From the NCBI RefSeq assembly GCF_053078305.1, contig NZ_CP166879.1: DNA of 64,000 nucleotides, one strand, 5' to 3'. Shown here in pieces: positions 2,339-30,063 of the stretch. The stretch's first letter is position 1, and the number at the start of each line of letters is the position of its first letter. Both the position numbers and the translations under genes were made by a program. A model generated the notes under the pieces. That model searched no databases. It was not told the DNA's origin and saw only the letters and a list, made by a program, of their open reading frames with translations.

Positions 2339-3271
2339 TTAGTTTTCCAGTACTCGTGCGCCCGCCGTATCCAGCCGGCAAATATGAACAAAACCTTCCT
2401 GATTTTGCAGGTAGTTCTTACCCAACCAGTCGGCAACGCGCTGGGCGGTATCCGGCTTGTCACACAGAGCGAACAAGGTCGGGCCGGAGCCGGAGATACC
2501 GCTCGCTACCGCGCCGATTTCCGCGACCGCCTGCCGCGCCTGCCGGAAGCCAGGCAGTAACCGTTCACGGTAGGGTTCTGCGATAACATCTTTCATCAGC
2601 TTCGCGGCAAGCTCAGGCTGACGGGAATAGCAGGCGTGAATGAAGCCTGCCAGATGTCGCCCGTGCGCAATGCAATCCTGGCGGCGATACTGCGCCGGTA
2701 AAATAGCCCGGGCTTCTGCCGTCGAGACTTTAATCCCCGGATACGCCAGCACCCACAGCCACTCATCAAACCCTGGCACTTGCTGGCTGATGATGTCGTT
2801 TTCTTCGATCATCAACTGCATACCACCAAGAAAACACGGTGCCACGTTGTCGTAATGAATGCTGCCGGAGATTCGTCCTTCCAGCTCGCCCATCAAAGCC
2901 AGCAAACGAGTGTCATTAAGCGGCTTGCCACAGTGTTCATTCATCGCCATCAGCGCCGCGACCACCGAACAGGCGCTGGAGCCTAAGCCCGAACCGATCG
3001 GCATATTCTTTTCCAGAGTCATCGCCACTGGAATTTGCTTCCCAAGCTCCTGGCAAAAACGCTCCCAGCACTGATAAACGATATTTTCCCGTGGTTCTGA
3101 CGGCAGCTTATCGGCAAAGCGTCCGAGGTTGTTGAGACTGAATGTCTCTGCCGCCTCAACCGTTACTACATCTCCGAGCAATGCACCATCAACGGGTGTC
3201 ACCGCCGCCCCGAGCACATCAAACCCGACGCTCATATTGGCACTGGAAGCCGGGGCATAAACTTTAACCAT
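2339..3271 (-). CDS. thrB: Homoserine kinase
   Basis: 310-aa ORF recognised as ThrB ([21 protein letters not shown]...); directly follows thrA. Confidence 0.97.
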
Positions 3272-3272
3272 G

Positions 3273-5735
3273 TCAGACTCCTAACTTCCATGAGAGGGTA
3301 CGCAGCAGATCGGCAAAGACACCGGCAGCTGTAACGTCATTGCCCGCACCATATCCGCGCAGCACCAACGGCAGCGGCTGATAATAGTGGCTATAAAAGG
3401 CCAGGGCGTTTTCGCCATTTTTCACTTTGAACAGCGGATCATTACCATCCACTTCGGCAATCTTCACGCGGCAGACACCATCTTCATCAATATTGCCAAC
3501 ATAGCGCAAAACTTTTCCTTCATCACGGGCCTTCGCCACGCGCGCGGCAAAGAGATCGTCGAGCTGTGACAGATTCGCCATAAAAGCGGCAACATCACCC
3601 TCGGCGTTAAACTCTGCGGGCAGCACAGGTTCAATTTCAATATCCGCCAGCTCCAGTTCACGTCCCGTTTCACGAGCGAGGATCAATAGTTTACGCGCCA
3701 CATCCATACCAGAAAGATCATCTCGCGGGTCCGGTTCGGTATAACCCATTTCCCGCGCCAGCGTAGTCGCCTCGGAGAAACTCATGCCTTCGTCTAACTT
3801 GCCGAAGATATAAGAAAGCGAACCTGAAAGAATGCCGGAGAACTTCATCAATTCATCACCTGCATTGAGCAGATTTTGCAGGTTCTCAATAACCGGTAAT
3901 CCAGCCCCAACGTTGGTGTCATAGAGGAATTTACGTCGCGATTTTTCCGCCGCATAACGCAACTGATGGTAGTAATCCATCGACGAGGTGTTGGCCTTTT
4001 TATTCGGCGTGACAACGTGGAAACCTTCGCGCAGGAAGTCGGCATATTGATCCGCCACTGCCTGGCTGGAGGTGCAGTCAACAATGACCGGGTTCAGCAG
4101 ATGATATTCTTTCACGAGGCGAATTAAGCGCCCGAGATTAAACGGCTCTTTGGCTTGTGCAAGTTCTTCCTGCCAGTTTTCCAGGTTTAGGCCATGCACA
4201 TTGGTGAGCAGAGCCTTCGAGTTGGCAACGCCGCAGACACGTAAGTCGATATGTTTATTCTTCAACCAGCTTTGCTGACGCTTCAGTTGCTCCAGCAGCG
4301 CACCGCCAACGCCACCGACGCCAATCACAAACACTTCGATAACCTGATCGGTATTGAACAGCATCTGATGAGTAACGCGCACGCCAGTGGTCGCATCATC
4401 GTTATTTACCACGACAGAGATTGAGCGTTCAGAAGATCCCTGAGCAATGGCGACAATGTTGATATTGGCGCGGGCCAGCGCGGCAAAGAATTTCGCCGAG
4501 ATCCCACGCAAGGTGCGCATACCATCACCTACCACCGAGATAATGGCCAGCCGTTCCGTCACCGCCAGCGGCTCCAGTAAGCCTTCTTTCAGTTCCAGGT
4601 AGAACTCTTCCTGCATTGCCCGTTCAGCTCGCACACAGTCGCTTTGCGGAACGCAGAAACTGATACTGTATTCGGAAGATGATTGCGTAATCAGCACCAC
4701 GGAAATACGGGCGCGTGACATTGCAGCAAAGACGCGCGCCGCCATGCCGACCATTCCTTTCATCCCCGGGCCGGAAACGCTGAACATTGCCATGTTATTC
4801 AGATTGGAAATGCCCTTGACCGGTAATTCGTCTTCATCACGGCTGGCACCAATGAGCGTACCTGGAGCTTGAGGATTTCCGGTATTTTTAATCAGGCAAG
4901 GGATCTGGAACTGGGCGATGGGGGTAATGGTGCGGGGGTGAAGAACTTTAGCGCCGAAGTAGGAAAGCTCCATCGCTTCCTGGTAGGACATCGACTTCAA
5001 CAACCTCGCATCGGGCACCTGACGCGGGTCGCAGGTATAAACCCCGTCAACGTCCGTCCAAATCTCGCAACAATCGGCGCGTAAACAGGCAGCCAGAACC
5101 GCCGCGGAGTAGTCGGAACCGTTGCGTCCAAGCACCACCAGTTCGCCTTTTTCATTACCGGCGGTGAAACCTGCCATCAGCACCATGTGATCAGCCGGAA
5201 TACGACTTGCCGCAATACGGCGGGTGGACTCAGCAATATCGACGGTAGATTCGAGGTAATGCCCCACTGCCAGTAGTTTTTCGACCGGATCGATAACGGT
5301 AACGTTGTGACCACGCGCTTCTAACACGCCGGCCATAATGGCGATCGACATTTTCTCGCCACGGCAAATCAGCGCAGCGTTAATGCTATCCGGGCACTGC
5401 CCTAACAAACTAATGCCATGCAGGACATGTTTTATTTGGGCAAATTCCTGGTCGACGAAAGTTTTCAATTGCGCCAGCGGGAATCCCGGCTGGGCGGCGG
5501 CGAGTCCCGTCAGAAGTTCGGCAAAAATACGTTCGGCATCGCTGATATTGGGTAAAGCATCCTGGCCGCTAATGGTTTTTTCAATCATCGCCACCAGGTG
5601 GTTGGTTATTTTGGCGGGGGCAGAGAGGACGGTGGCCACCTGCCCCTGCCTGGCATTGCTTTCCAGAATATCGGCAACCCGCAGAAAACGTTCTGCATTT
5701 GCCACTGATGTACCGCCGAACTTCAACACTCGCAT
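3273..5735 (-). CDS. thrA: Bifunctional aspartokinase I / homoserine dehydrogenase I
   Basis: ORF 3273..5777; start placed at the internal Met giving [17 protein letters not shown] (820 aa). Confidence 0.96.
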
Positions 5736-28591: not shown

Positions 28592-29608
28592 ATGTCCACA
28601 TTACGCCTGCTCATCTCTGACTCTTACGACCCGTGGTTTAACCTGGCGGTGGAAGAGTGTATTTTTCGCCAAATGCCCGCCACGCAGCGCGTTCTGTTTC
28701 TCTGGCGCAATGCCGACACGGTAGTAATTGGTCGCGCGCAGAACCCGTGGAAAGAGTGTAATACCCGGCGGATGGAAGAAGATAACGTCCGCCTGGCGCG
28801 GCGCAGTAGCGGTGGCGGCGCGGTGTTCCACGATCTCGGCAATACCTGCTTTACCTTTATGGCTGGCAAGCCGGAGTACGATAAAACCATCTCCACGTCG
28901 ATTGTGCTCAATGCGCTGAACGCGCTTGGCGTCAGCGCCGAAGCGTCTGGACGTAACGATCTGGTGGTGAAAACCGCCGAAGGCGACCGCAAAGTCTCAG
29001 GCTCAGCCTATCGCGAAACCAAAGATCGCGGCTTCCACCACGGCACCTTGCTGCTCAATGCCGACCTCAGCCGCCTGGCAAACTATCTCAATCCGGATAA
29101 AAAGAAACTGGCGGCGAAAGGCATTACGTCGGTACGTTCCCGCGTGACCAACCTCACCGAGCTGTTGCCGGGGATCACCCATGAGCAGGTTTGCGAGGCC
29201 ATAACCGAGGCCTTTTTCGCCCATTATGGCGAGCGCGTGGAAGCGGAAATCATCTCCCCGGACAAAACGCCAGACTTGCCAAACTTCGCCGAAACCTTTG
29301 CCCGCCAGAGTAGCTGGGAGTGGAACTTCGGTCAGGCTCCGGCATTCTCGCATCTGCTGGATGAACGCTTTAGCTGGGGCGGCGTGGAACTGCATTTCGA
29401 CGTTGAAAAAGGCCATATCACCCGCGCCCAGGTGTTTACCGACAGCCTCAACCCCGCGCCGCTGGAAGCCCTCGCCGGGCGACTGCAAGGCTGCCTGTAC
29501 CGCGCGGATATGCTGCAACAAGAGTGCGAAGCGCTGTTGGTTGACTTCCCGGACCAGGAAAAAGAGCTACGGGAGTTGTCGGCATGGATGGCAGGGGCGG
29601 TACGGTAA
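28592..29608 (+). CDS. lplA: Lipoate-protein ligase A
   Basis: 338-aa ORF recognised as LplA ([57 protein letters not shown]...). Confidence 0.97.
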
Positions 29609-29639
29609 CTCGCTGATTAAAATATCCAGGGAAGGAAAT

Positions 29640-29903
29640 ATGATCGATCTGGAAAACCAGGAACGGGAGATTATCAATTTAATGTTCAGCCAGCGTATTT
29701 CCTGGCTAGCCGCCGTGCGTATCAGGCATAAATTATCGCTTGCTGAAGTAAGTAAAATGTTAGGTATCTCCATTAATTCTCTAAAACAGATCGAAAAGAC
29801 GGAACGGCTTAGCTCAAACATCAAAAGCAAAATGGCAGAAATTTATGGTTGTCCACCAGAGTTGCTGATATGCCCTTCCTGGATGACGGCTGAACATAAA
29901 TGA
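29640..29903 (+). CDS. Small XRE-family helix-turn-helix protein (87 aa), low GC
   Basis: ATG at 29640 with RBS GGAAGGA 5-11 nt upstream; HTH-like segment LSLAEVSKMLGISINSLKQIEKTER; occupies the lplA-deoD gap. Confidence 0.6.
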   Translation: MIDLENQEREIINLMFSQRISWLAAVRIRHKLSLAEVSKMLGISINSLKQIEKTERLSSNIKSKMAEIYGCPPELLICPSWMTAEHK

Positions 29904-29998
29904 ATAGATTCGTGAATAGATACTTGAATGGATTTTATTATCTATCCATATGAAAAATAATAGTAAATCTATAAATCAGTTGCTATTGATGAATAGAT
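29901..29998. repeat. Iterated 9-mer TGAATAGAT (three exact direct copies, one variant TGAATGGAT, one inverted ATCTATCCA) in an AT-rich spacer
   Basis: Copies read directly at 29901-29909, 29913-29921, 29926-29934 (variant), 29940-29948 (inverted) and 29990-29998. Confidence 0.7.
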
Positions 29999-30000
29999 AC

Positions 30001-30030
30001 TAAAAAGCCGGAGCAGTCTCCCGCTCCGGC
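30001..30030 (-). terminator. Rho-independent terminator downstream of deoD
   Basis: Hairpin GCCGGAGC-N8-GCTCCGGC followed on the minus strand by TTTTTA. Confidence 0.8.
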
Positions 30031-30063
30031 TTAACACAACAATCGCCTTTCAGCGAAACGCAA

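Follow-up and report, generated by a model that had tools for sequence, protein, structure and literature searches.

An 87-codon helix-turn-helix (HTH) gene in an Escherichia chromosome is followed directly by a cluster of 9-bp repeats, and the question that this locus raises is which protein reads them. An earlier note on this DNA had named the product of the adjacent HTH gene as the obvious binder. We found the array to be homologous to the DNA immediately upstream of hipH (yjjJ), a gene that has been replaced at this locus, and we consider it probable that the array is the promoter–operator module of hipH, with the winged-helix domain of HipH as its autorepressing binder.

The repeat array and its neighbours

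The window (the whole 64-kb stretch of DNA that was analysed) is a segment of an Escherichia chromosome that contains serB, ytjB, lplA (28592–29608, plus strand), the 87-aa open reading frame (ORF; 29640–29903, plus strand), and deoD, deoB, and deoA on the minus strand. All five copies described earlier (three exact, one variant, and one inverted) were located at 29901–29998. Exact copies of TGAATAGAT lie at 29901–29909, 29913–29921, and 29990–29998, while copies with one mismatch lie at 29925–29933 (TGAATGGAT, plus strand) and at 29940–29948 (TGGATAGAT on the minus strand, which is ATCTATCCA on the plus strand). Counting a further exact copy at 1042, the window holds four where 0.38 would be expected, a number that 100 shuffles did not once reach, in agreement with the claim that the density is above chance. 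Matches with one mismatch are not enriched over the whole window (13 vs 10.6 expected), and five of the 13 fall within the 98 bp of the array. The earlier note would have regarded a similar motif density in much AT-rich intergenic DNA as speaking against its reading; the cluster is unique in the window. The fourth exact copy (1042–1050) is alone, with no copies nearby, and appears unrelated and consistent with chance.

Read in the sense of hipH (i.e., on the minus strand of the window), the 9-mer becomes ATCTATTCA, and we refer to the copies as boxes counted away from the former hipH start. Box 1 (29901–29909, minus strand), which reads TGAATAGAT on the plus strand, is nearest to that start. 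Box 2 (29913–29921, minus strand) is an exact copy 12 bp from box 1, and box 3 (29925–29933, minus strand) is the variant TGAATGGAT, or ATCCATTCA in the hipH sense, another 12 bp from box 2. Tandem Repeats Finder recovers the first three boxes as a single tract (29901–29934) with a period of 12 and 2.8 copies. Beyond a 56-bp spacer (29934–29989, minus strand) stands the distal box (29990–29998, minus strand), an exact copy of TGAATAGAT 89 bp from box 1 that has an 11-mer, TGAATAGATAC, in common with box 2. The intrinsic terminator of deoD (30005–30032, minus strand) follows, its T-run leading into the distal box.

The 87-aa ORF is labelled 'helix-turn-helix domain-containing protein' in RefSeq and matches Pfam HTH_3 (E = 1.2e-6), so that its description as an HTH gene stands, with an Xre/Cro-type domain. 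Its TGA stop codon forms the first three bases of box 1, the overlap that had likewise been pointed out before. PADLOC and NCBIfam returned generic HTH models for the protein and no specific family. The GC content of the gene is 41.7%, compared to 51.9% for the window. Given a dN/dS of 0.1–0.25 among intact alleles, the ORF is a real gene under purifying selection; in some E. coli it is broken by an internal stop (H14), a frameshift (strain 550), or an internal deletion (L004). In E. coli TBE6 (L003, 4371–6180), an IS5-family element splits the gene and an IS200C transposase gene lies in the intergenic DNA on the deoD side, indicating that the slot tolerates insertions.

A replication or partition site, also offered in the earlier note, finds no support in this setting. 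No rep or par genes and no origin context occur near the array, and the neighbours (serB, ytjB, lplA, deoD, deoB, and deoA) form a chromosomal housekeeping stretch, which speaks against both iterons and a centromere. An RNA element was set aside as well, given that Rfam holds no family match for the array region and the minus-strand leader is unstructured (z = −0.36). The plus-strand fold (z = −6.1) includes the deoD terminator hairpin and probably owes much of its value to it.

The same boxes upstream of hipH

In E. coli MG1655, the slot between deoD and lplA is occupied by hipH (yjjJ, b4385; 1332 bp), encoded on the opposite strand. Written in the orientation of the window, the K-12 sequence runs ...CAT TAATGAATAGATTCGTGAATAGATACTTGAATAGATTT...AAATGAATAGATAC, then the deoD terminator, which places the boxes immediately ahead of the hipH ATG, in whose sense they read ATCTATTCA. 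The terminator is common to both alleles, and the swap runs exactly from the start codon of hipH to its stop codon (window 29609–29900 vs K-12, L002, 2270–3601). By alignment with hipH alleles, an ATG is kept at the position of the hipH start codon (29895–29897, minus strand; CAT on the plus strand), and the DNA beyond it is unrelated to hipH.

This ATG opens a frame of only 26 codons, antisense to the end of the 87-aa gene, which is probably not a gene (the frame differs in L250, a homologous locus described below). We also considered 29609–29900 as a degraded hipH and rejected this, as neither nucleotide nor translated similarity rose above that of shuffles. Nor does any other part of the window code for a HipH homologue.

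Of 5426 complete E. coli genomes, 4057 contain 80% or more of the lplA–ORF–deoD junction seen in the window, and 1347 contain 80% or more of hipH together with its K-12 intergenic region; the two counts come from separate searches, not cross-checked per genome, and their sum amounts to nearly all genomes, which suggests that hipH and the 87-aa gene are mutually exclusive alleles. Approximately 75% of complete E. coli genomes, with O157:H7, O145:H28, and B REL606 as examples, have the 87-aa gene instead of hipH and have kept the orphan array. hipH is not a core gene of E. coli, and caution is warranted in extending the HipH phenotypes of K-12 or UPEC to other strains. Homologues of the 87-aa protein (41–54% identical) sit in the same lplA–X–deoD slot of other genus-level enterobacterial lineages (one of them labelled Salmonella enterica), with lplA genes that are ~79–83% identical to all others. 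The replacement is thus old or has spread, and both alleles seem to persist or move across genera.

The order deoD–hipH–lplA was observed in E. coli K-12, Salmonella enterica, Citrobacter freundii, Klebsiella sp. RIT-PI-d (as labelled), Kosakonia cowanii, Cedecea, and one further species (HipH 69% identical), and in Erwinia tasmaniensis, deoD and hipH are followed by ytjB, lplA not being there. With E. albertii counted in the series (the flanking genes of its hipH are not listed), the comparison covers nine genus-level lineages from Escherichia to Erwinia, over which HipH identity falls as low as 49%. All nine lineages and the window share the same arrangement of boxes at approximately −36, −24, and −12, and a distal box at −99 to −101, relative to the hipH ATG. 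Box 1 of the window is homologous to the −12 box of hipH in K-12, E. albertii, Salmonella, and others, box 2 corresponds to the −24 box, box 3 to the −36 box, and the distal box to that at −99 to −101. In the window, the three direct ATCTATTCA-type boxes recur every 12 bp, and the single mismatch in box 3 gives the ATCCATTCA variant that the Salmonella hipH locus also has there. The last proximal box ends 1–4 nt short of the hipH ATG. The distal box, (A/T)ATCTATTCA, follows the deoD terminator on the hipH-sense strand and in 10 loci begins 64–66 bp ahead of where box 3 begins, the spacer sequence itself not being conserved between genera or alleles. In the window it is found in the same orientation just past the terminator, 65 bp from 29925. 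In one hipH locus (L009, 1355–2400), a 163-aa ORF and four GC-rich, REP-like repeats separate deoD from the distal box; this insertion is upstream of the distal box, with the 3+1 geometry unbroken.

In hipH alleles, the spacer is the probable site of the promoter. In Salmonella, with the promoter assigned by eye, it contains TTGACA-17-TTAAAT with the −10 element abutting box 3, so the proximal boxes would cover the −10 region, the transcription start, and a short leader lacking a Shine–Dalgarno sequence, while the distal box falls upstream of the −35 element. Judged from the sequence, proximal and distal boxes so placed are arranged as in a repressor operator. The proximal boxes are invariant in six hipH alleles, the spacers of which differ strongly between E. 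coli and E. albertii.

Could the repeats be functionless, a 12-bp tandem made by chance or slippage in AT-rich intergenic DNA? Tandem pairs of AT-rich 9-mers at this spacing are indeed common in large collections: ATCTATTCA-N3-ATCTATTCA has 89 exact matches in IMG/VR viral contigs (L025–L104; 42 independent contexts), compared to 48 stretches (35 contexts) for a shuffled 9-mer and 46 for the reversed 9-mer, seven of which are in the real set too. At the hipH locus, however, the box sequence is conserved across all lineages between Escherichia and Erwinia, but the 3-nt linkers vary, as does the 56-bp spacer; slippage would produce the opposite, and the box positions are fixed relative to the hipH ATG. 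Together with the shuffles of the window, none of which reached the observed count, this makes chance or slippage an extremely improbable source of the array, effectively refuted already by the cross-genus conservation.

The viral matches themselves do not amount to a phage-wide motif and, given the controls, represent a background of 12-bp tandem duplications (spacings of 11 and 13 bp gave 19 and 4 matches, respectively). A hipH homologue is near only four of them, a HipH-like HTH domain is encoded in those four contigs only, and no neighbouring gene common to the viral matches was seen. Many of the matches are beside gene starts, and some comprise 3–7 tandem units. The real matches were intergenic in 27 of 42 contexts, vs 5 of 35 for the shuffled 9-mer, and more often than the latter they were in higher-GC contigs.

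HipH and its relatives as candidate binders

The HTH domain of HipH 'may function to bind DNA', and the control of the HipH/YjjJ toxin kinase has been stated to be unknown (PMC8262856). A 2024 study noted that c-di-GMP-dependent control acts 'at the promoter region' of hipH, with the site not named (PMC11452175). In K-12, ChIP-exo with myc-tagged YjjJ gave zero binding sites (PMC8464067), which could be due to low native expression or to the tag, yet is a real negative. Our search of the literature for the box sequence or a HipH operator returned nothing relevant. HipH has no antitoxin gene, and its HTH domain is without a known target.

Residues 1–55 of HipH are confidently predicted to form a winged helix of the ArsR/SmtB type (pLDDT 94). 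The nearest solved folds are ArsR/SmtB-type repressors, with an rmsd of ~1.6 Å over 53 residues and weak E-values of ~0.1. Pfam does not recognise the domain (top match MarR_2, E = 0.05), and HipH has no sequence relative in the PDB.

The boxes also accompany relatives of HipH away from the deoD–lplA slot. Those found by protein homology alone in unlinked contexts, namely on an E. coli phage-plasmid, a Comamonas megaplasmid, and viral contigs L188, L195, and L205, have 3–4 CTATTCA repeats spaced by 11–12 bp just upstream of the start codon. The phage-plasmid relative is preceded by ATTCA-tga-ATCTATTCA-tta-ATCTATTCA, and GC-rich DNA upstream of the Comamonas relative contains (G)CTATTCA four times, spaced by 11, 12, and 12 bp. 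When repeated 7-mers were sought de novo, the one occurring most often upstream of several relatives was a sub-word of the box, with 12-bp spacing. An Aeromonas plasmid relative has one or two boxes at most. Upstream ATCTATTCA boxes were noted at a hipH relative (35% identical) on plasmid pE2-2 (L184, 1280–1486) and on viral contigs L067, L070, L073, and L077; these replicons are E. coli phage-plasmid-like and ~90–100 kb in size. Cross-talk between the hipH relatives of phage-plasmids and the chromosomal boxes is conceivable.

The relatives on the phage-plasmid, the Comamonas megaplasmid, and contigs L188, L195, and L205 all share the recognition helix S-Q-(A/P)-T-x-S-R. Relatives with an (S/T/N)-R-x-T helix have other repeats, such as AATCGTTTCA in Polaromonas and ACGTAAC..TAATT in viral contigs L196–L200, some of which are 12-bp phased. 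This covariation of helix and box, seen across a handful of lineages, and the co-occurrence of boxes with HipH relatives suggest that HipH is the binder and that its binding would be repressive. Given the same repeats at unlinked relatives, the link between helix and repeat, and the predicted winged helix, we regard autorepression by HipH as the most likely function of the module.

[quoted passage not shown] In the mechanism that we envisage, winged-helix domains of HipH would bind the boxes head-to-tail. The candidate binding sites are the three direct ATCTATTCA boxes, which at a period of 12 bp extend from the −10 region to 1–4 nt before the start codon, and the fourth box beyond the promoter, 64–66 bp upstream of the third. 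Bound HipH would block the promoter, perhaps with a bridge to the distal box, and would in this way repress its own gene, as is usual for toxin–antitoxin loci. In the window, hipH has been exchanged exactly, from start codon to stop, for the unrelated 87-aa Xre-type gene on the opposite strand, and this replacement has left the putative operator orphaned.

There seems to be no earlier description of this candidate operator, with its 3+1 direct boxes, 12-bp phase, and fixed 65-bp offset. As a precisely delimited candidate, the 3+1 box architecture makes HipH autoregulation directly testable, and it offers a rationale for the regulation of hipH 'at the promoter region' (PMC11452175). It also carries a warning for annotation, in that the HTH gene nearest to an operator need not own it.

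The array in strains without hipH, and known systems

Both decay and constraint are visible where the 87-aa gene has replaced hipH. Box 3 varies among E. coli HTH alleles (GGAT, GTAT, or AGAT), and the distal box is polymorphic in some E. coli strains with either allele. One 12-bp repeat unit has been lost in E. coli strain 550 (L017), and E. coli TUM18780 (L018) lacks precisely the 77 bp from box 2 to the distal box, the two boxes that share TGAATAGATAC. This deletion evidently arose by recombination between repeats, and the repeats evidently act as deletion substrates. Across eight E. coli HTH-allele sequences (the window, L001, L013–L016, L019, and L020), positions 29901–30004 differ at 0.019 per site on average, against 0.054–0.055 per site in the adjacent non-coding stretches and a dS of 0.10–0.20 in the flanking genes, a comparison drawn from small, diversity-picked samples in which AT-rich DNA mutates differently. 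Segregating sites are absent from boxes 1 and 2 and from 29941–29989 in these eight sequences.

Beyond E. coli, a 50% identical homologue of the 87-aa protein (L250, JGI 3300034522, 3001–3360) is followed by TGAATAGAT-acc-TGGATAGAT-atc-TGAATAGAT and, 87 bp beyond box 1, by TGAATAAAT; as in the window, the stop codon overlaps box 1. In another locus (L024, Logan DRR526040, 864–1200), an 87-aa homologue is present and the boxes are lost. A pure fossil should decay, so the slow divergence and the retention of boxes in L250 count against a pure relic and point to some remaining function of the array in hipH-less strains, which might involve an antisense promoter, another binder, or even the 87-aa protein.

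We consider it rather unlikely, on the whole, that the orphan operator is selected and bound by something else in the ~75% of E. coli without hipH, for which the candidate binders would be the 87-aa Xre protein or the HipH homologues of phage-plasmids that carry the same boxes. Were this true, the locus would be a long-standing switch between two alleles, a toxin kinase and a small repressor, that share one cis-regulatory platform in several enterobacterial genera.

Binding by the adjacent 87-aa protein, in one version as a repressor of a relic minus-strand promoter antisense to its own gene, would accommodate some of these observations. No non-coding part of the locus is better conserved among E. 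coli HTH alleles than the array with its spacer, purifying selection acts on the gene, and L250 retains the boxes beside a homologue of only 50% identity, with the stop codon again over box 1. Yet the boxes are older than the gene, occurring with the same spacing and position upstream of hipH in genera that do not have it and accompanying hipH in many genera and in unlinked contexts. They also lie downstream of the ORF and not in its promoter, where an autoregulatory operator of an Xre-type repressor would be looked for. Recognition helices vary among homologues of the 87-aa protein (SINSLKQ, TPESLAR, and TAEALKR) while the boxes are identical in L250 or absent in L024, so the boxes do not co-vary with the protein, and strains with a broken ORF (L004 and L014) keep perfect boxes. 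Given the lack of tracking, the downstream position, and the greater age of the boxes, we judge the 87-aa protein quite unlikely to be the binder. The earlier note was in this sense right about an operator-like direct-repeat array for an HTH protein, and probably wrong about which one.

Two inverted repeats specific to the 87-aa allele belong to the same discussion, as they would suit a dimeric Xre protein. The inverted variant copy (29940–29948, plus strand; ATCTATCCA) forms ATGGAT-N10-ATCCAT (29928–29949) with box 3, and CTATTGATGAATAG (29983–29996) overlaps the distal box. The inverted copy is invariant among E. coli HTH alleles and occurs in no hipH allele of any genus compared, which places it outside the conserved architecture, and both inverted repeats are missing from hipH alleles. 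The inverted copies are, however, not shared with L250, and could be either sites for a dimeric protein or the product of chance in AT-rich DNA.

A further reading is that another trans-acting protein binds the array in hipH-plus and hipH-less cells alike, or that the module has been re-used, e.g., as a regulated antisense promoter, leaving the array functional without HipH. The constraint on the array region in E. coli HTH alleles and its retention in L250 would fit, as would the negative YjjJ ChIP-exo and the c-di-GMP-dependent control that maps to the hipH promoter, for which a c-di-GMP-responsive binder was not named. Such a host factor would nevertheless have to be common to Enterobacterales, the host of the Comamonas megaplasmid, and the hosts of several phages, and its specificity would have to shift in step with the HipH helix. 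We know of no E. coli factor with a motif that matches ATCTATTCA at a 12-bp period. For re-use of the module, the spacer in the window may be a relic or possibly an antisense promoter, with a −10-like GATAAT/TAATAA at ~29935–29942 on the minus strand; a strict consensus scan of the window found no minus-strand promoter, and the Rfam result above offers no RNA alternative. The loss of boxes in L024 and the deletions in L017 and L018 also weigh against either form, and we consider this reading unlikely. Autorepression by HipH remains our preferred account of the module.

Several known systems bear comparison with a hipH operator of this kind. Short phased direct repeats over or beside a promoter are found in the operators of MraZ (at the mraZ promoter), the P2 C repressor, and OmpR/PhoB-type regulators, where they are read by monomers or head-to-tail dimers. 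The typical periods are 10–11 bp, or 22 bp in the case of P2 C, and both the sequences and the protein families differ from those considered here. To our knowledge, a 12-bp period with a fixed distal site ~65 bp away has not been described for any of these. Plasmid iterons and partition repeats are likewise clustered short direct repeats in AT-rich DNA; the unit here is shorter than in typical iterons, however, and in related genomes the repeats go together with a promoter and a start codon.

Other parallels are genes autoregulated by a cis-fused DNA-binding domain, including those of toxin–antitoxin systems, beside which the array would be the obvious candidate target of the HipH HTH domain. 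Unlike for those systems, an operator of HipH was not reported in the literature searched, and ChIP-exo of YjjJ was negative. The hipBA operators bound by HipB in E. coli K-12 are palindromes read by a separate Cro-type antitoxin dimer, whereas the array here comprises direct repeats at a 12-bp period with a distal site, no hipB–hipA pair is present at the locus, and binding is presumed to be by a winged helix that forms part of the toxin protein, with no antitoxin gene. What the array would share with hipBA is the overall design, an autoregulatory array with several sites distributed over the promoter of a HipA-family kinase toxin locus.
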